DNA of 64,000 nucleotides from Escherichia phage Andreotti. The stretch is from the sequence record MN850610.1; one strand, written 5' to 3'. Below are positions 9,135 to 64,000 of the stretch, piece by piece. The notes below the pieces were generated by a model. The model was not told the DNA's origin. It ran no database searches and saw only the letters and a list, made by a program, of their open reading frames with translations. Within the stretch, counting starts at the first letter, position 1. Each line of letters begins with the position of its first letter. A program made the translations under genes and the position numbers.

Positions 9135-9878
9135 TTAAATCTTCAGGATAGCTCTTAGTTTGCTCTCAAGGTCTTCAAGAGTACCATTATTATGAATAAT
9201 GTCACGCTCATATTTTGTAGAAATGCCATTTTCTGAAACATGTGATGAAACTTTGTCCACATTGTCTCTTTTTACTTCAATAGTTTGGTGTGCAAATCTA
9301 CTCAGCCACTCAGCTTCAGAGTCAAATCTTAAATCACTGATTAAAACAACACCTTCTTGATTTCTAAGTGAGCAAACATCAAAGAAATTTACCATTCGTT
9401 TTTCGAGGTCTTTAGACCAGAACTTGTCACCCATAACTTTACGGATAACTTCAGTGCCCCAAATCTGTTGAATTTGTCTTGATGAGAATTTATACTTTTT
9501 ACTAAATCCCAGACGTGTTAATAGAGTCGGTTTAGCAACCTTCTTAAGCTCCATGATTAATCGTCCGGTTAACTCTGACATAAGCTTAAAATCCATATGG
9601 TAACGTTCGCCTTTGAAGGTGAACTCCATAGCTTCAGTAACTTTGAACATTAGCTCAGGATATGATAAGTCAAATACCTGTGGAGTCTCTTTAGTTTCAC
9701 CATACAGGTCATTCCAAGTCAGGTCAAATATCTTTGATGCAGATAGCTTAAGGTTGTCTGCATAAGCCATTACAGCAACATTATAGCCATATTCATCCTC
9801 TAAGATGTTCTTCACAATAGAACATGAGGTGTCTTTTCCAGAACGTGCCTTTCCAGTAAATGCGATAATATTACTCAT
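9135..9878 (-). CDS. deoxynucleoside monophosphate kinase (T4 gp1-like)
   Basis: N-terminal P-loop IAFTGKARSGKDT similar to T4 dNMP kinase FLSGVKRSGKDT; about 240 aa. Confidence 0.7.
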   Translation of the reverse strand: MSNIIAFTGKARSGKDTSCSIVKNILEDEYGYNVAVMAYADNLKLSASKIFDLTWNDLYGETKETPQVFDLSYPELMFKVTEAMEFTFKGERYHMDFKLMSELTGRLIMELKKVAKPTLLTRLGFSKKYKFSSRQIQQIWGTEVIRKVMGDKFWSKDLEKRMVNFFDVCSLRNQEGVVLISDLRFDSEAEWLSRFAHQTIEVKRDNVDKVSSHVSENGISTKYERDIIHNNGTLEDLESKLRAILKI

Positions 9879-9901
9879 TTTATCTCCCTTAATTACTAAA
9901 A

Positions 9902-9922
9902 AGCCCCCAACTAAGGAGGCTT
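9902..9922 (-). terminator. candidate terminator hairpin downstream of 9940-10740
   Basis: AGCCCCC...GGAGGCT stem with A-run on plus side. Confidence 0.35.
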
Positions 9923-9939
9923 GTAAGATTTATAAAGAC

Positions 9940-10740
9940 TTAGTGCAGTTGCTCAGCAGACTCTTTTTCAGCCATAGCTGAGATTTGCTTCACAAAATCA
10001 TCACCGAAGTTAATGCGTAGTTTCTCTTCAATGATTGAAGCACCAATGTTCACCAAAACATCATTGATTGCTTGCATACTAACGCCACCAGTCATCTCCT
10101 CAATGAACTCAATACTCACACCCATCATCTGTGAAAGTTGGATTAGTGCAACGATATTCATCATCGTGGAGATAGCTGGAATCATCAGTGCAACTTTCAC
10201 CTGAAGTGGTTCTATATCAGCTACAGAGTCATTTTCAACAGCTTCTTCCAAAGACTCTTTAGTTTGCTGGATAATCTCTTTGATTCGTGGGTTTAATTCT
10301 TCTACGCCCCAATCAAGTTTTTCATATCGTGAAAGTTTCTCTTCCATACGCTTCTCAAGAACAGCCATAACAGCACTCGTTGATGAGATAAGCGTATCAA
10401 TAATGAAATCAGTGTCCTTAGTCAGCAACAGTTCCTTATCTTCGTCTGACATCCTGATATAGTCATTCTTTTGCATTTCATAAAAAATGAACTCAGCAAG
10501 TGCATCAACACCAACCGCAATAGATGCCAGAGCAAGTGTAGTGTCTGTTAACATCATGTTGACCTGTTCTGCAAAAGCACCGTTATCAGACTTGTCTTCA
10601 GGCAAGTTATAGCTTGCAGGCATAAACTGTTCTGTGTAGTTGTTACCACGAAGAATCATAGCCATGCTTTCTACGGCATTGATTAAGAATGCTTCATCAA
10701 CACCTTTCTCTTCAAGCATCTTTTCTACATCGATATTCAT
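9940..10740 (-). CDS. hypothetical acidic protein (266 aa)
   Basis: ORF track; Asp/Glu-rich. Confidence 0.55.
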   Translation of the reverse strand: MNIDVEKMLEEKGVDEAFLINAVESMAMILRGNNYTEQFMPASYNLPEDKSDNGAFAEQVNMMLTDTTLALASIAVGVDALAEFIFYEMQKNDYIRMSDEDKELLLTKDTDFIIDTLISSTSAVMAVLEKRMEEKLSRYEKLDWGVEELNPRIKEIIQQTKESLEEAVENDSVADIEPLQVKVALMIPAISTMMNIVALIQLSQMMGVSIEFIEEMTGGVSMQAINDVLVNIGASIIEEKLRINFGDDFVKQISAMAEKESAEQLH

Positions 10741-19506: not shown

Positions 19507-19719
19507 ATGGCTCTTAAAAAGTTACATCCCAGAAGCGGTTATGGTAAGATAATTGACGATACAGACGGCTTTACAGTCTTTACAGTCATCTGTCAAGATG
19601 ATTCACAGATTGAAAAGGTTCTTGATGATTATCTTAATGATGAACGTGAAAAGGTTAGAGCTACAAACATAGATTCATTGCTTGACACTTCACGCAAACG
19701 GAAGAAGAAAGATGAATGA
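19507..19719 (+). CDS. hypothetical protein (70 aa)
   Basis: ORF track; tightly coupled to flanking ORFs. Confidence 0.4.
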   Translation: MALKKLHPRSGYGKIIDDTDGFTVFTVICQDDSQIEKVLDDYLNDEREKVRATNIDSLLDTSRKRKKKDE

Positions 19720-20011
19720 GGTTTTTGACCCTTATGCCCCACAAGATGATTGGGAGGCTGATAGAGAGGCTGAAATGGAGAGTTATATTTGTCCAATGGA
19801 TGTAGACGAAATGAGAGACTTCGTTGCACATCGTTTTAAGAGAGAGATTAAATCCAGAGGTCTTTCTCAAGAGCAAGTTGCTAAAATTTGTGGTATCTCT
19901 CAGGCTCGTGTATCCAACATAATCCATCTCACTGGTAACGTCTCCCTTGAGTATATGTTGGAAGTATGTGAAAAATTTGGTGTTAATTTCAATTTAAGGT
20001 TGGCAGATTAA
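19712..20011 (+). CDS. helix-turn-helix DNA-binding protein (about 99 aa)
   Basis: HTH-like segment LSQEQVAKICGISQARVSNI; start set to MNEV at 19712. Confidence 0.5.
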   Translation: MNEVFDPYAPQDDWEADREAEMESYICPMDVDEMRDFVAHRFKREIKSRGLSQEQVAKICGISQARVSNIIHLTGNVSLEYMLEVCEKFGVNFNLRLAD

Positions 20012-23209: not shown

Positions 23210-23288
23210 TTAATCACCTCATCAGCCAAGATGGTGAGAATACCCATAAAGAATATTAACACCATCTTAACAATCAGTCAACAAGGGA

Positions 23289-46540: not shown

Positions 46541-46616
46541 TAAAATAACTTGGAGAATCCGAAGGGACTCGAACCCTTATAAACCTGTTTTGCAGACAGG
46601 CACATATCCATTTCTG
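46541..46616 (-). tRNA. tRNA-Cys (anticodon GCA)
   Basis: manual cloverleaf: 7-bp acceptor GAATCCG/CGGATTC, T-arm AAGGG-TTCGAGT-CCCTT, anticodon loop CUGCAAA, CCA encoded. Confidence 0.75.
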
Positions 46617-46620
46617 TCAC

Positions 46621-46713
46621 GGATTCAAATTGGAGGAAGATACCAGACTTGAACTGGTACACCGATTTCTCAGCTACTGGCAGTTTAGCAAACTGCTCCC
46701 TTACCTTTTAGGG
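46621..46713 (-). tRNA. tRNA-Ser (anticodon GCU), class II with long variable arm
   Basis: 93 nt; acceptor GGAAGAT/ATCTTCC, anticodon stem GCAGT/ACTGC, loop UUGCUAA, T-loop TTCAAGT. Confidence 0.7.
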
Positions 46714-46724
46714 TTAATCTTCCA

Positions 46725-47459
46725 TTATTTCTGTAATGCGCTCTTCATTTCTGGTGTTGCAATAGTGTCAATCACACCAGTTTTACAAGCATCGTCAAAC
46801 CAGTCTGGTAAGATACCTGCTAAGAACCCATTGATATTCGTTTTAAGGTACTCTGCAATAAGGGCAGCTTCTTCTTCAATCATCTGCACAACTTCATCTG
46901 CATAAGCTGTAATCTTTGAAATACCTTCATTAATCTTACTGACAGCTTGGTTAGCTAAATCAGAAACAGTATCAAGACCCTTATCAATAGCATCTTGTAA
47001 GTCACTTAACACACCATTAACACTATCTAGTGTACTGTTCATCATGTCAATAGCTTTTTGACCATACTCTGTAGCAACACCCATGATACCACTGAATGGT
47101 GTACAACCAACTTGTTCTCCTGCTGCACCCATAACATTGGAATACCCCTTTGCTACCTGCATACGTGATGAAAACTCATCAATAGATTTTTGACCGTAGT
47201 CTGTCAGAGTTTTAGTAGTTGCTGTAGTGCTTGTAAGGCTTGTTGTAAAGCTGTTTAGAAGGACTGTTGTAAGTCCAGCAGCAACAAGTTTCTCCTTCAT
47301 TGTAGGGTCTGTTACAGAACTAATAGAGCTTACAAGTGATGTAGAAGCAGCTACGGTTCCACCGAGAACTGCTGCACCAGTAATAAGCGGGTTAGAGAAC
47401 CCTTTACCAGTTTTTAAGAGATTAAAAATCTCCTTACCTTGTTCTGTCATCTCTTTCAT
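46725..47459 (-). CDS. hypothetical protein (244 aa) embedded in tRNA array
   Basis: track ORF 46725-47522 trimmed to ATG 47459 (MKEMTEQ...) so it does not overlap tRNA-Phe; Ser/Thr/Ala-rich. Confidence 0.55.
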   Translation of the reverse strand: MKEMTEQGKEIFNLLKTGKGFSNPLITGAAVLGGTVAASTSLVSSISSVTDPTMKEKLVAAGLTTVLLNSFTTSLTSTTATTKTLTDYGQKSIDEFSSRMQVAKGYSNVMGAAGEQVGCTPFSGIMGVATEYGQKAIDMMNSTLDSVNGVLSDLQDAIDKGLDTVSDLANQAVSKINEGISKITAYADEVVQMIEEEAALIAEYLKTNINGFLAGILPDWFDDACKTGVIDTIATPEMKSALQK

Positions 47460-47475
47460 TAAGCACCTTTGAAAT

Positions 47476-47552
47476 TGGTAGTCCAGTGGGATTTGAACCC
47501 TCTTCTCATGTTTTTCAGACACGCGCTTTAACCATATAAGCTACTTGGACTA
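47476..47552 (-). tRNA. tRNA-Phe (anticodon GAA), tentative
   Basis: anticodon arm CGTGT-CUGAAAA-ACATG; T-loop TTCAAAT with one stem mismatch; ends approximate. Confidence 0.55.
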
Positions 47553-47557
47553 TAAAT

Positions 47558-47633
47558 TGGGGTGACCTACGGGATTTGAACCCGTATAGACCATGTTCAC
47601 AGCATGGGTCATTACCGTTTATGATAAGGCCAC
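47558..47633 (-). tRNA. tRNA-His (anticodon GUG)
   Basis: acceptor with one G-U, T-arm ACGGG-TTCAAAT-CCCGT, anticodon stem CCATG/CATGG, CCA encoded. Confidence 0.7.
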
Positions 47634-47664
47634 ATTTAAGGACTCTCGCAAGAATCCTTAGAAG

Positions 47665-47740
47665 TGGCAGCGGCATAAGGATTTGAACCTTAATAGGACA
47701 GCTTCAGAGGCTGCTGCATTGCCAGTTATGCTATACCGCT
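47665..47740 (-). tRNA. tRNA-Gln (anticodon CUG)
   Basis: T-arm TAAGG-TTCAAAT-CCTTA; anticodon loop CUCUGAA; CCA encoded. Confidence 0.65.
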
Positions 47741-47745
47741 AAATT

Positions 47746-47824
47746 TGGTACTCCATATCGGATTCGAACCGATACATAACACAGATTTTAAGTCTGGCCT
47801 CTCTGCCAATTGGAGTAATGGAGC
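47746..47824 (-). tRNA. tRNA with Leu anticodon UAA, short variable region (atypical)
   Basis: T-arm ATCGG-TTCGAAT-CCGAT, anticodon loop CUUAAAA, D-loop AAUUGGCAG, A73, CCA encoded, 79 nt. Confidence 0.55.
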
Positions 47825-47826
47825 AT

Positions 47827-47902
47827 TGGCGGGGGATGTTGGAATTGAACCAACTTCTTCGATTTCAAAGACCGAGGTTTTAACCTTGTAAACTAATCCC
47901 CT
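47827..47902 (-). tRNA. tRNA-Gln (anticodon UUG)
   Basis: T-arm GTTGG-TTCAATT-CCAAC, anticodon loop CUUUGAA; 1-72 mismatch. Confidence 0.6.
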
Positions 47903-47910
47903 TTAAATCT

Positions 47911-48468
47911 TTACTTTCTCAGTGGATGAATAAAGAATGCCAACATAACTCTTTCCCTTGAGAATGCTCTTTCTTCTGGGACAACACTTTTTAGTTTCCA
48001 TCCAACATAAATTCTCCAGTAAAACTGTTTACCAAAGATTTTAATTGACGGAATAAAAGCGAATAATCCCCAAGCATTGTTGTTCCACATTAGGAGATAA
48101 CCTGTCTGATTATCTTCAGGGTCAGAACTTACGTTGATATTACCTTTCCACTTAGTAACATCTTTTACATCTCTTCCTAATACATGGTAAGAGAAGTTAT
48201 AAGCTTTGTTTCTCCAGAGCCATCCAACTCTCTGCATATAAACACCGAGCTTGCCAATCTTTCTAATCTTAGCCCATCTCTCAACGTGGCCTTTATCACC
48301 ATCAATCGGGTTGTCATAGGTCTCCATCCATCTGAATCCAAAAGGTAGATGCCCTTTCTTCTCACTGTAGAATGGAACTACGAAAGGTGCTAAGATGACT
48401 GCTAGGGTTGCTGCAAATGGTTCTAGTAAAGCTAGGAAAATCCATGAAGCATACTTCAAATATCTCAT
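47911..48468 (-). CDS. hypothetical membrane protein (185 aa) within tRNA array
   Basis: N-terminal hydrophobic segment WIFLALLEPFAATLAVILAPFVVPF; AAGAGG RBS. Confidence 0.55.
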   Translation of the reverse strand: MRYLKYASWIFLALLEPFAATLAVILAPFVVPFYSEKKGHLPFGFRWMETYDNPIDGDKGHVERWAKIRKIGKLGVYMQRVGWLWRNKAYNFSYHVLGRDVKDVTKWKGNINVSSDPEDNQTGYLLMWNNNAWGLFAFIPSIKIFGKQFYWRIYVGWKLKSVVPEERAFSRERVMLAFFIHPLRK

Positions 48469-48486
48469 CTAAATAGCCTCTTAAAA

Positions 48487-48564
48487 TTGGTGTTCCAAGA
48501 CGGATTCGAACCGTCACTAATACAAGGTTTGAGCTTGCATCCTCTGCCAATTGGGATACTGGAA
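48487..48564 (-). tRNA. tRNA with Leu anticodon CAA, short variable region (atypical)
   Basis: T-arm GACGG-TTCGAAT-CCGTC, anticodon arm GCAAG-CUCAAAC-CUUGU, D-loop AAUUGGCAG, A73. Confidence 0.55.
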
Positions 48565-48565
48565 C

Positions 48566-48640
48566 ATGGTACTCACTAAAGGACTTGAACCTTTTTCTTC
48601 ATCTTGTAAGGGTGATGTTTTACCATATAAACTAAGCGAG
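48566..48640 (-). tRNA. tRNA-Val (anticodon UAC)
   Basis: T-arm AAAGG-TTCAAGT-CCTTT; anticodon stem 5 bp incl. G-U, loop CUUACAA. Confidence 0.7.
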
Positions 48641-48736
48641 TGTGAAAGAGGTCTGAAGTTGTGCCGCTAACTCAACTCCGTGGAATTTGTTACGGTCTTC
48701 AGTTGACACCAGCGGTCTTTCACTTGACCTCTGAAT

Positions 48737-48813
48737 TGGTGCTGCTCACAGGACTCGAACCTGCATTTCCATCCTTACAAGGGATGTGTAATAGCCAATT
48801 ATACGAAAGCAGC
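48737..48813 (-). tRNA. tRNA-Thr (anticodon UGU)
   Basis: T-loop TTCGAGT; anticodon stem 5 bp, loop CUUGUAA. Confidence 0.7.
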
Positions 48814-48819
48814 ATTGTT

Positions 48820-48894
48820 TGGAGCATCCAGAGGGAATCGAACCCTCAACCTCAGTTTGGAAGACTGTAATTTTCCCGTTTAAACTATGGATGC
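48820..48894 (-). tRNA. tRNA-Gly (anticodon UCC)
   Basis: perfect acceptor, T-arm GAGGG-TTCGATT-CCCTC, anticodon loop CUUCCAA. Confidence 0.7.
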
Positions 48895-48900
48895 ACTAAT

Positions 48901-48976
48901 TGGTGGAGTCACTGAGAATTGAACTCAGTTCCCAAGTTTGCAAAACTCGAATTTTAACCATATAAACTATGACCCC
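48901..48976 (-). tRNA. tRNA-Ala (anticodon UGC)
   Basis: G3-U70 pair in acceptor (Ala identity element); T-arm CTGAG-TTCAATT-CTCAG; anticodon loop UUUGCAA. Confidence 0.7.
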
Positions 48977-48982
48977 ATTGTT

Positions 48983-49058
48983 TGGTACAGGTGGAGGGAA
49001 TTGAACCCATCGTCTTACTGATTAAGAGTCAGCCGCATAACCATTTTGCTACACCTGC
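48983..49058 (-). tRNA. tRNA-Lys (anticodon CUU), tentative
   Basis: T-loop TTCAATT with one stem mismatch; anticodon loop CUCUUAA. Confidence 0.55.
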
Positions 49059-49065
49059 ATTAATT

Positions 49066-49143
49066 TGGTAGGAGACAAGGGATTCGAACCCTCAAACATC
49101 TCGTTCTAAGCGAGATAGGTTTACCAATTACCGTCAATCTCCC
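49066..49143 (-). tRNA. tRNA with Leu anticodon UAG, short variable region (atypical)
   Basis: anticodon arm TCTCG-CUUAGAA-CGAGA perfect; T-loop TTCGAAT; D-loop AAUUGGUAA; A73. Confidence 0.55.
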
Positions 49144-49400
49144 ATTAAATCTTTTTAGAGAACTCCTAAGAACCTAAGCAACAAGGTTCCACAACAAGCT
49201 GTAATAACCTTAGAAGCCCTCTAAAAAGACCTAAAAAGGTCTTTGCATAGTCTTGTTTAATCCGGTGACTAGAACCTTTGGAGAGCTTGATATTATCTCT
49301 TCTCCGTGACACCTACTAGGTGTTTTATCAGTGTGTACGACAATACACGAGGGATACCAAAGCAACATCCGAATGAAGCTTGGCTTTAAATCTTATTAGG

Positions 49401-49488
49401 CGGTAAGTAAAGGAGTCGAACCCTCACCGTATCTCTACAGTGGCAACTGTTTTCAAGACAGTTTGGCTACCATTAGCCGCTACCTACC
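49401..49488 (-). tRNA. tRNA-Ser (anticodon UGA), class II
   Basis: 88 nt; 6-bp anticodon stem AACTGT/ACAGTT, loop CUUGAAA; 19-nt variable arm; T-loop TTCGACT; CCA not encoded. Confidence 0.65.
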
Positions 49489-49501
49489 CCTAATAAGATT
49501 T

Positions 49502-49584
49502 TGGCATGGGACGGAGGAGTTGAACCCCTTTGAAACGGTGTTGGAAGCCGTTGCTCATGCCTTAGAGTCTTAACATCGTCCCAT
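49502..49584 (-). tRNA. tRNA-Trp (anticodon CCA) with enlarged D region
   Basis: perfect acceptor ATGGGAC/GTCCCAT, anticodon arm ACGGC-UUCCAAC-ACCGU; about 7 extra nt between acceptor and anticodon stem. Confidence 0.5.
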
Positions 49585-49724
49585 ACTATAATTCGAAGCT
49601 TACCGTATTATCTCAACACTGTAAAGCCCCTTCTCAGATTATTTACATGTTCTGGAAAACATGAGATACAGACCACCTCCCTACAGGAAGACCCGCTAAG
49701 GTCGTCTAAGTAATCTGCTAACTA

Positions 49725-49801
49725 ATTGGCACACCCTACAGGATTCGAACCTGTAACTAACGATTTAGAAGACCGTTGCTCTATCCAATTGAACTAAGGG
49801 T
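49725..49801 (-). tRNA. tRNA-Arg (anticodon UCU)
   Basis: T-arm ACAGG-TTCGAAT-CCTGT; anticodon loop CUUCUAA. Confidence 0.65.
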
Positions 49802-50049
49802 GCATTAATCTTTAAAGACTCTCTTAGAAAGCCCTTAAAGATGCCCACCTTATTAATCATACCGTGGGCGAGTACGCCAAATTCTTTGATGAGGGATTGG
49901 AAGACCTCACTGGTGTTTAGCCTATCAAGCTACTGCCAGAAAAACATTGTCGTTTGCATTTATTTTAAATTTGCAAAATAGACGCTACGCAACGAAAACT
50001 AAGGGTACTATAAAGTAGTCACATCTCAATGTCAACAACTTTATTGAAT

Positions 50050-50124
50050 TTGGTTGTAGGTGAGGGTATCGAACCCTCTTCTAACGGTTATCAGCCGTTT
50101 GCATTACCATTTATGCTAACCCAC
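50050..50124 (-). tRNA. tRNA-Ile (anticodon GAU)
   Basis: T-arm GAGGG-TTCGATA-CCCTC; perfect 5-bp anticodon stem, loop CUGAUAA. Confidence 0.75.
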
Positions 50125-50126
50125 AA

Positions 50127-50203
50127 TTGGAGGTTCAGATGGGATTCGAACCCACATTCATAGGGCTTATGAGACCCTTGCATTACCTTATCTGCGACTG
50201 AAC
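50127..50203 (-). tRNA. tRNA-Met (anticodon CAU), elongator-type
   Basis: perfect acceptor GGTTCAG/CTGAACC; T-loop TTCGAAT; anticodon loop CUCAUAA. Confidence 0.65.
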
Positions 50204-50207
50204 CATT

Positions 50208-50283
50208 TTGGTAGAAGTGGAGGGATTCGAACCCATCGCCTGTCAGATTAAAAGTCTGCCGCATCACCATTCTGCTACACTTC
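50208..50283 (-). tRNA. tRNA-Lys (anticodon UUU)
   Basis: T-loop TTCGAAT; anticodon loop CUUUUAA. Confidence 0.6.
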
Positions 50284-50293
50284 CATTAAATTA

Positions 50294-50440
50294 TCTTTGT
50301 AGATAAGCTACCCAGACTTGCTTAAGGTCTGTAGCGATGTGCCTTTATGGGTTTAAAATCTAGAATTTACCCTTTCACCCTTTGTGGTCGCATACTCACA
50401 GGTAAGCTTAATAACTTATCTACAAAGATAATTACCAGAC
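50294..50440 (-). repeat. structured non-coding element bounded by a perfect 17-bp inverted repeat
   Basis: TTATCTTTGTAGATAAG (50294-50310) and its exact reverse complement (50424-50440) enclose 113 nt containing nested inverted repeat GCTACCCAGAC / GTCTGTAGC. Confidence 0.6.
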
Positions 50441-50713
50441 CGTTATTTATCATCTTAAGTGCTACCATTACACCAACTCGACATCTGCCGAGTGAAGGAA
50501 TCGAACCTTCGCCTTTTCTTTACCGAGAAATAGATTGTTTAAGTTTTGCTGTAAACGGTCTTCTGTAAATTTGTTGAGCCAGACCAAGTTTTAAATTTTT
50601 CAAAATTGAATTGGCTTGAAATTTTAAGTAACTTGCTGAATTTGGTCTTCTGCTCCTTTAAAGGATACTCGTAAGAACCCTTTAAGGGAGGGGCTAAATA
50701 GCCCTCTCAAAAT

Positions 50714-50789
50714 TGGCGAGGTATGCGAGAATCGAACTCGCGGCTCAGGAGAGACAGTCCCGTATTTTGCCCATCTAAACTAATACCCC
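50714..50789 (-). tRNA. tRNA-Asp (anticodon GUC), tentative
   Basis: acceptor GGGGTAT/ATACCTC, T-arm GCGAG-TTCGATT-CTCGC; anticodon loop CUGUCUC has U at position 37. Confidence 0.55.
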
Positions 50790-50795
50790 AAAAAT

Positions 50796-51224
50796 CTATG
50801 TACCATTTCTTAGGTACTTCTCTTTACGCCTTGCTGGATTGTAGTGCTTGCGTCCTTCTGCGTTTTTAGCAAGTCTGCAAGGTTCACACCTACAACCTCT
50901 TCTATAACCAGACACTGTGCCATGTTTAATTGGTGTGTATTTCCTATCACCAATCTGGGCTGGCCTAGTTGCTTTTGAATTACATTGTATGTGGCTGTAA
51001 GATATATTGTCAAGTGAGAAGAAAAGCTCTTTTGCATTCTCTTCATGTCTCCAAGGAACTTTATGTTCTATAGAGAAATCAACTCTGGACATTTCTTTTC
51101 CACAATGGTGACACTTATTCTGTCCAGTTTTACAAACCAAATCAAAGAGTAAATCTTTAACAAGCCTGTTCTGGGCTGTTCCTAAGCTCATACCAAGTTG
51201 TGACTTGTAAACTTCATTCTTCAT
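50796..51224 (-). CDS. HNH endonuclease (putative homing endonuclease) inside tRNA array
   Basis: CHHCGKEMSRVDFSIEHKVPWRHEEN...H (HNH-type His/Asn spacing); C-terminal GYRRGCRCEPCR. Confidence 0.7.
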   Translation of the reverse strand: MKNEVYKSQLGMSLGTAQNRLVKDLLFDLVCKTGQNKCHHCGKEMSRVDFSIEHKVPWRHEENAKELFFSLDNISYSHIQCNSKATRPAQIGDRKYTPIKHGTVSGYRRGCRCEPCRLAKNAEGRKHYNPARRKEKYLRNGT

Positions 51225-51246
51225 AGTATCAACATCTTATTAAAAT

Positions 51247-51331
51247 TGGTGCGCCCATCTGGACTCGAACCAGAAACCTTGAAAGGGACAGTTTTACAGA
51301 CTGCTGCATTGACCATCTCTGCCATGAACGC
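51247..51331 (-). tRNA. tRNA-Tyr (anticodon GUA), class II
   Basis: 85 nt; T-arm TCTGG-TTCGAGT-CCAGA; anticodon loop CUGUAAA; hairpin variable arm; CCA encoded. Confidence 0.65.
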
Positions 51332-51341
51332 ATTTAAATTT

Positions 51342-51418
51342 TGGCGGTTAGTCAGGGATTCGAACCCTGTGCCATTCGCTTAACAGGCGACCGCACATAC
51401 CTTATGTGCTTCCTAACC
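51342..51418 (-). tRNA. tRNA-Asn (anticodon GUU)
   Basis: T-arm CAGGG-TTCGAAT-CCCTG; anticodon loop CUGUUAA. Confidence 0.65.
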
Positions 51419-51495
51419 TTAATACATTGCCAGACCGTGTTTTTTCTTTTATCCGCAAAAAGTATTTTGTTGCTGTAAACGGTCTTCTGTAAATT

Positions 51496-51571
51496 TGGAG
51501 GCGGGTGCAGGAGTCGAACCTGCCGATACCATGCTAATGAGACATGTGAGACGCCCTTTCTCTATACCCGC
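51496..51571 (-). tRNA. second CAU-anticodon tRNA (Met, or Ile2 via lysidine), irregular acceptor
   Basis: T-arm GCAGG-TTCGACT-CCTGC; anticodon loop CUCAUUA; acceptor pairs only with a 1-nt register shift. Confidence 0.45.
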
Positions 51572-51663
51572 AATTCTTAATGACCAGACCAAATCTCTTC
51601 TTTGTCCGATTTACCTTCAGATGAATAAGATTAAGTTTGCTGTAATTGGTCTTCTGTCAAAAC

Positions 51664-51741
51664 TGGCGTTCCAGAAGGGATTTGAACCCTCAGATATCCA
51701 CTTTGAAAGAGTGGTGACTATACCATTTTGTCTACTGGAAC
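51664..51741 (-). tRNA. tRNA-Glu (anticodon UUC)
   Basis: perfect acceptor; T-loop TTCAAAT; perfect 5-bp anticodon stem, loop CUUUCAA. Confidence 0.7.
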
Positions 51742-51748
51742 ATTAATT

Positions 51749-51825
51749 TGGTCTCTGTTGGAGGATTTGAACCTCCGGCCTTACCGCCCCAAACGGAACG
51801 CTCTACCAAGCTGAGCTAAACAGAG
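51749..51825 (-). tRNA. tRNA-Pro (anticodon UGG)
   Basis: perfect acceptor CTCTGTT/AACAGAG, T-arm GGAGG-TTCAAAT-CCTCC, anticodon loop UUUGGGG (G37). Confidence 0.7.
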
Positions 51826-61317: not shown

Positions 61318-61328
61318 AATATCTTAAG

Positions 61329-61356
61329 AGCCTCCTTAATTGGGGGCTTTTTATTT
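61329..61356 (+). terminator. rho-independent terminator ending plus-strand operon
   Basis: AGCCTCC-TTAATT-GGGGGCT hairpin followed by TTTTTATTTTTAT. Confidence 0.6.
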
Positions 61357-62904
61357 TTATAAAATTTTATCGGTTGTCCCAACCTCTGGGTCACCATCAT
61401 ATGTGAACAAAATATCTATCCTTCTTAACAACCCTCTTAATCTTACTCTCTATATAGTTATATAGTACTATATAGTATCTTAGTAACTATCTAGTGGTCT
61501 TAATAGCCCCTCTGTATAACCCTTCTAACAAGCCCTCTAACAAACCCTCTTAACAACCTATACAATCACCTTAACCATCCCTCTACACCTTCTTAGAAGC
61601 TCCTATACACCTCTTAATCTCTATGTCACATAGATGGCTCTCTATAGGTGTTCACTAGGTATTACTAAGCCTCTATATAGACTGTTTTAACAAACTTAAC
61701 AGGGATATCTTTACAGACCTTATCTCACAAGGTCTAACACGGTACTAACAAGGTATCTTATAAGCCTGTTATTACCTGTATTTTTAAAAGACTGTCTAGG
61801 TAATTATTCAGAATCTTAAAATTTTTATAAAATAGGACTATCAAGTCATTTTTTAGGGTCTTTGAAGGAACTGAAAAATATCTGTCTAGGATGTATATCT
61901 GCTTGGTAACCCTTAACAGCTCCCTTACAAGTACTTTGCAAAATTTTAAAATATCCTTAACAATCTCTTAACAATTCTCTCAAGCTCTTAACATCTCTTC
62001 AGAGGTCTTAACAGATTCTTAACAGAACTAACAAGGCTGTAACAAATTCTTAACAGTCGATACATGGTCTTTATAGTTTCTTAACAGATGACTAACAAGA
62101 GCTAACAAGTTAATTTTAAAGAGTTATTTTGTTAAGATAATTAACAAGTTCCTAACAAGTGTTTAATCTTTTTAACAAGCTATTAACATGGTCACTACTC
62201 TTTTCTTATCATTCCCTTTCCTTTCTTAATTGGTATTGTTACCAATCCCTAGTGATTCCTTAAACATGCCTCTTAAAAGCTCTCTATAGCCCCTTATAAG
62301 TTCTTTTAAGCCTCTTCCTAGTATTTACCCCTCAACTGTATGGATAGCTCTTTATAGGGCTTTTCAGGGGCTTTTAAGGCTATGCCAAAGGTTCTTACAA
62401 GGCTTTTACGTGGTCTTAACAGAGATTTAACAAGGGGCTAACAAGTTGCTAACAAGTGCCTTAAAAGCATAACTATGTAGGGATTGTTAAGAAATTGTTA
62501 AGAAAATGTTAAGGGGGCTAGCATTTACGTAACTTTTAAGCTACTTCAAAGTAACTTTAAAGCCCCTATAACATACTTTTAAGACACTAACAAGCCCTTT
62601 TTAGTTATTCACAAGATAGCTAACGAGATAATAAAGCTTATACCCTTATAAGATTCTTTTAAGGCTCTGGGAAGCTTTATAAAGGGCTTTTAAGGGTGAG
62701 GTAATGCAATCCCTTAAGTTAGGTTGATAAGGCTGTTATAGGGCGTTATAGAGCGTTTAAGGGGTTGCCCTTCCCTCTCGGGTTATGGGCTTATATTTAA
62801 GTTGATTTGATAAAAGGCTATAGAGTAGACTATAGAGTTATTGCTTTTTAAGGTCTGATAAGATTCTGGAAAGGAAAGGGAAAGGGATTGTATAAGGATT
62901 TGAT
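61357..62904. repeat. ORF-free iteron field: dozens of copies of CTAACAAG / CTTAACAG / TTAACAA and TATAGAG-type motifs
   Basis: no ORF of 60 aa or more in any frame across about 1.55 kb; runs with 10-11 bp phasing (TAACA starts at 62009, 62020, 62030, 62041, 62051, 62082, 62093, 62103); lies between convergent terminators. Confidence 0.8.
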
Positions 62905-62908
62905 AGAC

Positions 62909-62933
62909 GTAAAAAAGCCCCATTTAAGGGGCT
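62909..62933 (-). terminator. rho-independent terminator for minus-strand genes 62972-63830
   Basis: AGCCCC-ATTTAA-GGGGCT hairpin preceded on plus strand by GTAAAAA (U-run after hairpin on minus transcript). Confidence 0.55.
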
Positions 62934-62971
62934 GTAAAGGTATCTGGGGCTATTTAGCCCCGTTGCGGCGT

Positions 62972-63220
62972 TTAGTTAATGCCTTCTTTGTCGTAGTACA
63001 GGGATACAATTTTTTCACCCCAATAGTGATAAGTGTAACCCTCTTTGAGAACTTCCTCTTTTGTTTCTTTCCAGAATTCATCAGAGGGGTTGTAGTCACT
63101 GATGGTCTGGCTGATAAGGCCTTTCACCATTTCAAAGGCGTTATCAGTACCTACAAGGTCAAATTTAACGTCCAGAGAGTAGAAGCCAAATTCGTTAACA
63201 GTTGCGCGGATAGTAGCCAT
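62972..63220 (-). CDS. hypothetical protein (82 aa)
   Basis: RBS GGAGA 7 nt upstream of ATG; preferred over overlapping plus-strand ORF 62888-63247. Confidence 0.5.
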   Translation of the reverse strand: MATIRATVNEFGFYSLDVKFDLVGTDNAFEMVKGLISQTISDYNPSDEFWKETKEEVLKEGYTYHYWGEKIVSLYYDKEGIN

Positions 63221-63299: not shown

Positions 63300-63830
63300 T
63301 TACAGACTTTTGATTGTTTCGTCAATATCTTTTTCAATATCTTTTAAAGTTTTTTCTAAGTTCTTGATATTGAAAGATAAACCTTCTCCCAGTGTCTTAG
63401 AGTAACCGCTAGGTCGATGGTCGTAAAGCTCGATTTCTTCCACTTCGAAGAGGCTAACAGTCCAACCGCCTACGCCATAGGCTGAAGCAACAGAGTTTTC
63501 AGGGGCTTTATAGAACTTGTTAAGATTCTGGATAGAACGCTCATAAGCCATTTTATAGCCGTTTAAAAGGTTTTTAACGTGGTTACGAACGTTTTTACAC
63601 TCATCTAAGTAAATCTCTAAGAATAACGGCAATAATTCCGCTACAGCTTGCATAAAGTGAGAGACTACAACGGTTGCAACATTACGACGATGTACATAAT
63701 AAGCCCCGTTTTCTGACTTAGTGATGGTTGCAAAGTGTACCCCATTGCAGCGAAATTCGTAGGTATCTTTAACAGGCTTAGACATTACAGCATTTGAACG
63801 AATGTAGTTGATAGCTTGAAATTTGTTCAT
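63300..63830 (-). CDS. hypothetical protein (176 aa)
   Basis: track ORF 63300-63857 trimmed to ATG 63830 (MNKFQAINY...) with AGGAGA RBS; upstream codons of track ORF read through the palindrome centre. Confidence 0.55.
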   Translation of the reverse strand: MNKFQAINYIRSNAVMSKPVKDTYEFRCNGVHFATITKSENGAYYVHRRNVATVVVSHFMQAVAELLPLFLEIYLDECKNVRNHVKNLLNGYKMAYERSIQNLNKFYKAPENSVASAYGVGGWTVSLFEVEEIELYDHRPSGYSKTLGEGLSFNIKNLEKTLKDIEKDIDETIKSL

Positions 63831-64000
63831 TTTAGAATCTCCTAGTTTAAGGACCACTAAATAAAGTCCTTAAACTAGGAGATTCTAAAATGAACAAATT
63901 TCAAGCTATCAACTACATTCGTTCAAATGCTGTAATGTCTAAGCCTGTTAAAGATACCTACGAATTTCGCTGCAATGGGGTACACTTTGCAACCATCACT
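63712..64000. repeat. long perfect inverted repeat (palindrome) centred near 63862, truncated by window end
   Basis: plus 63879-64000 is the exact reverse complement of about 63721-63840; inner arms CCTAGTTTAAGGAC / GTCCTTAAACTAGG flank an 11-nt loop. Confidence 0.85.
63888..64000 (+). CDS. mirror copy of the 5' end of gene 63300-63830 (partial; continues past window)
   Basis: plus strand encodes MNKFQAINYIRSNAVMSKPVKDTYEFRCNGVHFATIT, identical to N-terminus of the minus-strand gene. Confidence 0.35.

Follow-up and report, generated by a model that had tools for sequence, protein, structure and literature searches.

Background

Fields of iterons, short repeats for the loading of protein, are a known kind of element. 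The origins ori of phage lambda and ori/crr of P4 combine iterons with adjoining AT-rich segments, and the type II centromeres parC of plasmids R1 and pB171 carry short iterons in tens of copies, repeated about every 11 bp, one face of which is cooperatively coated by ParR. The present study concerns a field of this kind in Escherichia phage Andreotti (sequence record MN850610.1), a gene-free gap of about 1.55 kb near the right end of the 64,000-nucleotide stretch that was analysed as a whole (referred to as the window). What is unusual in this case is the size of the field, the number of its sites and its location at a convergent gene junction; furthermore, nothing else in its neighbourhood is conserved as well across genera, and its motif matches the site of a host global regulator. 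As in the lambda and P4 origins, AT-rich islands are located beside the arrays, and with parC the gap shares short iterons at ~11-bp steps in tens of copies. However, parC flanks the parMR promoter next to the gene of its binding protein, whereas no par genes are seen at the gap and the phage is virulent.

The closest anatomical twin is the iss region of phage T5 (1662 bp), which is non-coding, abounds in repeats and palindromes, surpasses its neighbours in conservation and is furnished with boxes for the host protein DnaA. Both regions represent non-coding DNA of about 1.6 kb in virulent enterobacterial phages with terminal repeats. In contrast to the gap, T5 iss contains DnaA boxes and TGTGCAAATCCGAC-type repeats but no TGTTA arrays, and its position is within the terminal repeat, at 8 % of the genome, where it is tied to two-step DNA transfer, while the gap of Andreotti lies outside the terminal repeat. 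A proven origin of comparable build is the 2.7-kb non-coding region of the Vibrio cholerae satellite PLE, which is bound by RepA_N. It likewise extends over kilobases and contains several repeat families with iterons for a loading protein (only one of the four families represents an iteron), but the operons on its two sides diverge and a cognate rep gene belongs to it, whereas the gap is convergent, displays no visible initiator and has several-fold more iterons.

A third type of system is formed by the Escherichia coli binding sites of phosphorylated ArcA (ArcA-P). The minimal site consists of two direct repeats of ATGTTAAAAA, 11 bp apart from centre to centre, with TGTTA as conserved core. 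Chromosomal sites comprise 2–5 repeats (in most cases three to five) that are spaced by 11 or 22 bp, while a repeat at 12-bp spacing is not bound. Sites such as those of icdA, astC and phoH resemble the gap in their TGTTA(A) direct repeats at 11 bp with extra repeats at 11 or 22 bp, in cooperative loading on one helix face and in occasional sites on the opposite strand. They differ in having A/T-rich flanks and in mostly overlapping sigma-70 promoters; the phage field, by comparison, has ~37 repeats (at most 10 per cluster), G/C-containing flanks (TGTTAAG, TGTTAG) and two further motif families.

No published analysis of the repeat field was found among the open-access papers and preprints searched. 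The gap is not discussed in the papers on Felix O1, wV8 and UAB_Phi87, the comparative Felixounavirus studies, or the BASEL, PhageMaP and Danish wastewater papers, and public records label it 'repeat_region' at most. On the basis of the analyses described below, we tentatively regard the gap as a cis-acting nucleoprotein assembly region maintained by the whole subfamily Ounavirinae, which may in the first place serve as replication origin or replication control region.

Extent, motif content and helical phasing of the gap

With respect to open reading frames (ORFs) of at least 60 amino acids (aa) on either strand, 61318–62887 (1570 bp) is the longest empty stretch of the window, confirming the ORF-free region of about 1.55 kb that an initial annotation, made from the sequence without database searches, had reported; the next-longest such stretch is the tRNA cluster. 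Some public records annotate tiny hypothetical ORFs inside the gap, and the four small ORFs present in Andreotti (31–46 aa) are intact in just 0–5 of 20 relatives. A coding function is ruled out by the lack of conservation of the small ORFs and by indel lengths that are not multiples of three. The two terminators proposed to bracket the gap were both recovered by a terminator scan, each with a T-run; the homologue of the left one is annotated as terminator in wV8, Moogle and AYO145A, and the right one in Moogle. The gap corresponds to the convergent gp24/gp23 junction of Felix O1 and is flanked by gp24 and gp23 in FO1a (Felix O1 species). Felix O1 has four transcription blocks, of which block 40–24 (plus strand in the window) here meets block 97–131/1–23 (minus strand), the orientation of the window being opposite to that of the Felix O1 record.

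Motifs in the region 61318–62971 were counted and compared with 1000 dinucleotide shuffles. TAACA occurs 30 times on the plus strand versus 2.8 ± 1.7 in the shuffles, none of which reached 30 (maximum 10); this corresponds to 18.1 copies per kb as compared to 1.7 per kb in the remaining window. The longer consensus of the initial annotation is enriched 25- to 50-fold, with 25 versus 1.0 copies of [CT]TAACA[AG] and 13 versus 0.24 copies of [CT]TAACA[AG]G. Together with the inverted form TGTTA (7 vs 2.3), about 37 copies of a 5–6 bp core (TGTTA(A), reading TAACA on the plus strand) are present in clusters of 2 to 10. The second, TATAGAG-type family of the initial annotation is real but smaller (CTATATAG, 3 vs 0.11; TATAGAG, 3 vs 0.17; TATAG, 12 vs 4.1), and seven of the window's eight exact copies of the 8-mers CTCTATAG, CTATAGAG and CTATATAG fall inside the gap. 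A third family not mentioned before, CTTTTAAG, is represented by 6 copies (0.2 in shuffles).

Among the 29 spacings between successive TAACA cores, 11 bp is the most frequent (11 cases), followed by 20 bp (three) and 9 bp (two), while 10, 12 and 13 bp are each represented by a single case. Pairwise phase coherence (distances up to 66 bp) is maximal at 10–10.5 bp and amounts to 0.59, compared to 0.02 ± 0.09 after jittering of the positions (matched by none of 5000 jitters). The helical phasing suspected from the sequence is thus borne out, and the runs highlighted at 62007–62056 and 62080–62110 are present exactly there. Since the 11-bp steps are occasionally corrected by steps of 9–10 bp (mean 10.5 bp), the copies do not drift around the helix but all remain on one of its faces. 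The orientation of the cores is near-uniform, with a single inverted cluster giving rise to a head-to-head junction.

Conservation within the Ounavirinae

More than 250 phage records align with the gap and its flanks at 80–95 % identity, and nearly all of them are Felixounavirus phages from Escherichia, Salmonella, Shigella and Citrobacter; judged from its sequence, Andreotti is itself a Felixounavirus. A gap of 1.4–1.7 kb without conserved ORF is found at the equivalent place in four genera of the Ounavirinae, i.e., Felixounavirus, Mooglevirus, Suspvirus and the Erwinia Kolesnikvirus group. In each genus it contains 21–23 TAACA and 7–11 TGTTA cores with 11 bp as commonest spacing, as compared to 1–5 cores per 1.4–2.5 kb in the flanks. 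Across 20 relatives, 85 % of the gap positions are identical. In the alignment of 21 genomes, the six columns of (T/C)TAACA are identical in 90–97 % of the relatives versus 75–87 % for spacer columns, and indels between Felixounavirus genomes cluster at 10–12 bp (23 events) and 22–24 bp (24 events). Relative to Moogle and SUSP1, the gap shares 82 % identity over aligned columns, while the left and right flanking genes share only 68 and 74 %, respectively. This stronger conservation of the gap between genera points to a high density of information contributed by several factors. In case of phiEa104, 69 % of the aligned columns agree with the window (60 % for a shuffled control), with motif and phasing still retained. 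Here, TTAGAAG repeats take the place of the TATAG family, whereas the TAACA family is unchanged, suggesting at least two ligands that evolve differently.

Comparison with related genomes, as advised in the initial annotation, therefore reveals a conserved gap with cores above spacers and no conserved ORF; motif counts are not at the level of shuffled sequence, and an intact gene is not present at this place in the relatives. Decayed genes or functionless, neutral satellite DNA, as could be surmised from the tiny ORFs annotated in some records, have a negligible probability: these ORFs are not conserved, and preservation of the gap in more than 250 genomes and four genera, with cores above spacers and the gap above its flanking genes, contradicts this reading.

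High conservation of the entire gap could also reflect one or several non-coding RNAs, the repeats then being RNA elements. The 89-nt dyad at 62665–62753 stays 97.7 % paired on the plus strand with G-U pairs allowed, and its varying pairs do so via G-U (11) rather than via A-C (2). However, changes on both sides were observed in only 2 pairs of the dyad, and its covariation score was reached by 26 of 500 shuffles. Rfam covariance models yielded no match, the sole sub-threshold hit being Phe_leader on the terminator (27 bits vs a gathering score of 55 bits), and a sliding consensus-folding screen with RNAalifold resulted in a low structure conservation index (median 0.29). Promoter-like sites in the gap are not above chance (10 vs 6.7 ± 2.6 in shuffles), the best ones being poorly conserved. 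In addition, indels of 11-bp units and conservation confined to the cores fit DNA sites. The dyad is explained well enough by pairing between copies of the quasi-palindromic DNA motif CTCTATAGAG, and an RNA function is accordingly considered very unlikely.

Viral contigs were scanned with an exact pattern of four TAACA at 11-bp steps. Among the matches listed, short arrays of this type belong to many unrelated tandem repeats or iteron sets, while 19–25 cores per kb are reached in Ounavirinae only. The scan is silent on the nature of the ligand. One IMG/VR contig (L051; 127,697 bp), which has no match in the phage collection, displays within a non-coding segment (9740–10000) TTAACA repeats at 11-bp steps head-to-head with TGTTAAATTTT repeats, i.e., the same layout as 62417–62512 of the window.

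A possible replication origin or control region

Enrichment, phasing, conservation of the cores, 11-bp indels and occurrence in four genera support well the core claim of the initial annotation, a field of phased iterons loaded with protein. In the model proposed here, a DNA-binding protein would load cooperatively onto one face of the DNA in head-to-tail order, i.e., in the manner of OmpR/PhoB-type winged-helix proteins and of ParR-type proteins, while other factors would bind the palindromes. The terminators on both sides would keep transcription out, such that the complex is shielded from passing RNA polymerase. The origin or control region would be built of the iterons beside the two islands of 80 % A+T. 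Repeated, phased sites as known from origins are indeed present, and adjacent AT-rich regions are present as judged by composition; a comparable AT-rich tract is found in phiEa104 at the same relative position as the left island. ArcA-P is the only known protein with a published site fitting core and spacing of the main iterons and is therefore the leading known candidate for their ligand; a conserved protein of the phage itself is no less likely.

Several observations argue against a replication origin. No initiator gene adjoins the gap and none was recognised in the replication block, the window covering part of the genome. The replication block encodes a gp4-type primase-helicase, a family A polymerase (PolA), a ligase and an exonuclease; such T7-like replisomes classically initiate from transcripts, whereas terminators insulate the field. 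Forks leaving the gap at a convergent junction would meet transcription head-on, and origins are usually located between divergent transcription units. DnaA boxes are not enriched (one DnaA-like box, TTATTCACA, at 62605), nor is the exact IHF consensus (one copy). IHF matches with one mismatch are more frequent than in shuffles (11 vs 3.1 ± 1.8), which is attributed to the TAACAA-N4-TTA register of the iterons; himA and himD belong to the FelixO1 host factors identified in a transposon screen with Salmonella. Finally, the number of about 37 sites is several-fold above that of ordinary origins. Of the origin role suggested in the initial annotation, iterons and AT-rich islands thus stand, while the missing initiator gene, the lack of DnaA-box enrichment and the convergent junction tell against it.

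Alternatively, a phage-encoded protein could coat the arrays in order to organise or protect the genome, be it as a parC-like handle, for condensation or anchoring, or as a barrier holding converging transcription and replication forks apart, with no part in initiation. The location of the gap, precisely at the meeting point of two transcription units and with a terminator at either end, would suit such a function, as would, in case of a polar barrier, the predominance of a single orientation with one inverted cluster. The ~37 sites and the 11-bp unit resemble the ParR-coated centromeres of R1 and pB171, the flank signature TGTTAAG/TGTTAG differs from that of ArcA, and the occurrence of short 11-bp-step TAACA arrays in many unrelated viral contigs indicates that such iterons serve various proteins. 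However, no partition, ParB/ParR-like or barrier gene was recognised beside the gap, and partition would be of no obvious use to a virulent phage. The four flanking proteins examined are devoid of known domains, including those of partition proteins, leaving the partition site envisaged in the initial annotation without support. Among about 20 window proteins tested, the only DNA-binding regulator recognised is a Cro/C1-type helix-turn-helix protein (19712–20011), the fold of which suits palindromes rather than direct repeats. A barrier or organiser formed by a phage protein hence fits the location but comes without a candidate gene, and we regard it as rather doubtful.

ArcA-P as candidate ligand

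Irrespective of the function of the field, the ligand of its main iterons can be approached via the published ArcA sites. A matrix was constructed from 115 of 128 published boxes (Table S3, PMC3798270) and used to scan the window. Read on the opposite strand, the gap presents TGTTA(A) at 11-bp spacing, i.e., core and spacing of the published ArcA-P box. Exact TGTTA-N6-TGTTA pairs occur 13 times (0.01 expected from shuffles) and chains of 3–4 repeats at 11 bp five times (0.24). Boxes of at least 9 bits number 19 in the gap versus 2.6 ± 1.8 in shuffles (range defined by chromatin immunoprecipitation, 9.1–21 bits), and boxes of at least 13 bits 11 versus 0.34, with seven in the other 62 kb of the window. 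The main array accounts for nine of the 18-bp boxes (9–19 bits, minus strand), and the two boxes of the inverted cluster score above the best training or chromosomal box (21.5 bits) and above every shuffle. Similar scores were obtained for the other genera of the Ounavirinae. Consensus patterns of PmrA, PhoP and CpxR, three response regulators from the family of ArcA, are not enriched in the gap.

Other properties speak against ArcA as the ligand. Scored with the ArcA matrix, the flanks of each repeat contribute −1.9 to −2.3 bits in all four genera, and G follows TGTTA at position +1 in 6–30 % and at +2 in 33–46 % of the repeats, as compared to 3 and 8 % in ArcA sites. In the aforementioned screen, conducted aerobically, arcA was not among the FelixO1 resistance hits, while arcB was, as were himA and himD; much of this network was ascribed to RpoS by the authors. 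ArcA-P would probably bind the arrays in vitro, whereas an evolution of the arrays for ArcA is possible but open to considerable doubt. The host-protein-binding array proposed in the initial annotation thereby gains ArcA-P as a specific candidate, with motif and spacing equal to those of the ArcA-P box but with flanks that deviate.

Rather than an origin, the gap could then be a field for a host regulator, the arrays binding ArcA-P, the host's anaerobic response regulator, either as a sink that draws it off host promoters while phage genomes multiply or as a sensor linking the DNA metabolism of the phage to the redox state of its host in the gut. Agreement with the published site in core, spacing and head-to-tail order is exact, matrix scores are far above those of shuffles, and none of the three other regulator patterns is enriched. 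Survival of the motif in Erwinia phages despite turnover around it would be expected for a conserved host protein, loss of arcB protects Salmonella from FelixO1, and insulation by terminators would protect the bound protein. On the other hand, the flanks deviate from the ArcA preference in all four genera, the arcB effect was attributed to RpoS by the authors of the screen and arcA itself was no hit. Moreover, most chromosomal ArcA sites overlap promoters, which are not above chance in the gap. Imperfect neighbours in phase with the cores are not ArcA-like either, although this test is itself uninformative. A pure sink needs cores only, yet the whole 1.55 kb with its two other motif families is conserved above the neighbouring genes; it explains number and insulation of the sites, but not the conservation of everything else. 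Such a regulator field is therefore assigned a low probability, and the same applies to the more specific notion that the DNA of a virulent phage acts as high-capacity ArcA-P decoy (~37 half-sites multiplied by the replicating genome copies) or as reporter of the ArcA-P level. As regards the ligand, the origin and ArcA readings are compatible and not mutually exclusive.

Outside the gap, direct-repeat pairs of TGTTA occur at just two places of the window, 23256–23284 and 47007. At the former, three repeats follow one another at 11-bp steps, forming boxes of 15.1 and 16.7 bits; they lie in a spacer of 80 bp that separates ORFs of 780 and 65 aa.

Position relative to the virion DNA ends

The ends of UAB_Phi87 DNA were mapped by Bal31 digestion and run-off sequencing, and the UAB_Phi87 record, whose first base aligns to window position 47702, 13.6 kb from the gap, contains an exact 542-bp terminal repeat. 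A genome terminus, terminal repeat or packaging signal at the gap, as considered in the initial annotation, is contradicted by this end, which by homology lies in the tRNA cluster, and is hardly conceivable any longer. Several GenBank records do open or close within the gap, five of them at an identical spot, but the experimentally determined ends of UAB_Phi87 map elsewhere, and the 'repeat_region' at the ends of PC79-13 represents an assembly overlap of 127 bp. The shared break is located at ~62518, just right of the head-to-head junction (the unrelated records of ECOH1, I14.1, E9, SPJ41 and NBSal004), while further records break elsewhere in the gap; a repeat-caused assembly break or a copied convention could underlie the common point.

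By homology to UAB_Phi87, a virion DNA end with a direct terminal repeat of ~540–610 bp is positioned at 47702–48243 of the window, starting inside the gene for tRNA-Gln (47665–47740). The terminal-repeat region interrupts a set of 25 tRNA genes, all on the minus strand (46551–51825).

In virion coordinates, the gap would by homology be located 14.5–16.2 kb (17–18 % of the genome) from this end. Together with the close anatomical parallel to T5 iss, this distance would allow for a pause or anchor in DNA entry comparable to the T5 injection stop, where a host DNA-binding protein would retain the incoming genome pending the production of early functions. Furthermore, 29 non-receptor host factors are common to FelixO1 and a T5-like phage. 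However, two-step DNA transfer was never reported for Felix O1, and the segment between end and gap contains tRNAs and genes such as lysin rather than a host-takeover module. TAACA is counted 3 times and TGTTA 0 times in the T5 region, the top 7-mers of which are unrelated, and the DnaA model is only a hypothesis for T5 itself. A T5-like role of the gap in DNA entry therefore appears improbable.

Organisation of the field and neighbouring features

The favoured nucleoprotein assembly region is composed of a central part with the TAACA arrays and two arms (Table 1), the latter filled by two further repeat families, palindromic CTCTATAGAG-type and GGGCTTTTAAGG-type units. Conservation of the head-to-head junction extends over Felixouna-, Moogle- and Suspvirus, and phiEa104 possesses it as well. 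The 18-bp palindrome of the sole poorly conserved segment reappears as its reverse complement ~500 bp further right in two relatives (L135 and L030), as if a small palindromic unit had moved.

Table 1 Features of the repeat field in the window (basis of assignment given where it is not a stranded motif)
Feature	Position	Strand or basis	Description
Rho-independent terminator, left	61326–61356	+	Ends plus-strand gene block (Felix O1 genes 40 to 24); 10-pair stem-loop followed by T-run; scan 61326–61351
Whole gene-free repeat field	61357–62904	no strand	No ORF ≥60 aa; 37 TAACA/TGTTA cores
Left arm, C-rich on plus strand	61420–61565 (arm to 61780)	+	CCCTCTTAACAA-type units at 12–13 bp steps; TAACA at 61426, 61526, 61538 and 61551
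Three palindromic (C)TATATAG units (CTATATAG), second family	61449–61476	no strand	Among the best-conserved blocks (0.94)
Two TAACA pairs (61688/61697, 61735/61746)	61688–61750	+	Block conservation 0.90–0.95
AT-rich island left of main array	61797–61856	composition	80 % A+T over 60 bp; candidate for an easily melted region
Main array	61914–62188	+	16 TAACA cores in one orientation; steps of 11, 9–10 or 20 bp, mean 10.5 bp
Second AT island, within main array	62116–62175	composition	80 % A+T over 60 bp
Sole poorly conserved segment	62200–62250	alignment	Conservation 0.44; contains 18-bp palindrome ATTGGTATTGTTACCAAT at 62229–62246
Four TAACA	62417–62454	+	Exact 11-bp steps; copy number 4 to 6 among relatives
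Three TGTTAA, inverted	62484–62512	+	Exact 11-bp steps; head-to-head with 62417–62454; top ArcA-box scores (22.5 and 22.7 bits)
Right arm, G-rich on plus strand	62520–62900	+	GGGCTTTTAAGG-type and (C)TATAGAG-type units; 89-bp imperfect dyad 62665–62753
Rho-independent terminator, right	62906–62933	−	Ends minus-strand gene block (Felix O1 genes ...1 to 23); scan 62933–62916 with T-run

The gene adjoining the field on the right (62972–63220, minus strand) encodes an acidic protein of 82 aa without known domain (PHROG 4559), which is kept in Felixouna-, Moogle- and Suspvirus (60–63 % identity). At the corresponding place, phiEa104 has an unrelated protein of 83 aa (19 % identical); the use of the 82-aa neighbour as a guide to distant relatives was hence abandoned.

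Two observations concern the window at large. GATC, the site of Dam, MboI and MutH, is wholly absent from the 64 kb, as compared to 183 ± 12 copies expected from dinucleotide shuffles, i.e., it is totally avoided. At the edge of the window, 63720–63854 is the exact reverse complement of 63866–64000. Since four relatives are collinear past 63854, this perfect fold-back looks like an assembly or chimera artefact at the contig end.

Biological implications

No other non-coding feature of the genome is as large as the gap, and its conservation across four genera is stricter than that of the neighbouring genes. Felix O1 and its relatives are classic diagnostic phages for Salmonella and common candidates for therapy and biocontrol. 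If the origin reading holds true, identification of the ligand would reveal where replication is controlled in an entire subfamily of phages, which would be useful for engineering and for maps of safe deletions. If instead the ArcA reading holds true, a phage would read or drain a global regulator of its host via DNA sites alone. The respiratory and carbon-oxidation programme of the host might then be rewired, or phage development be timed in the oxygen-poor gut, and the field would represent a transcription-factor decoy made of viral DNA instead of protein.

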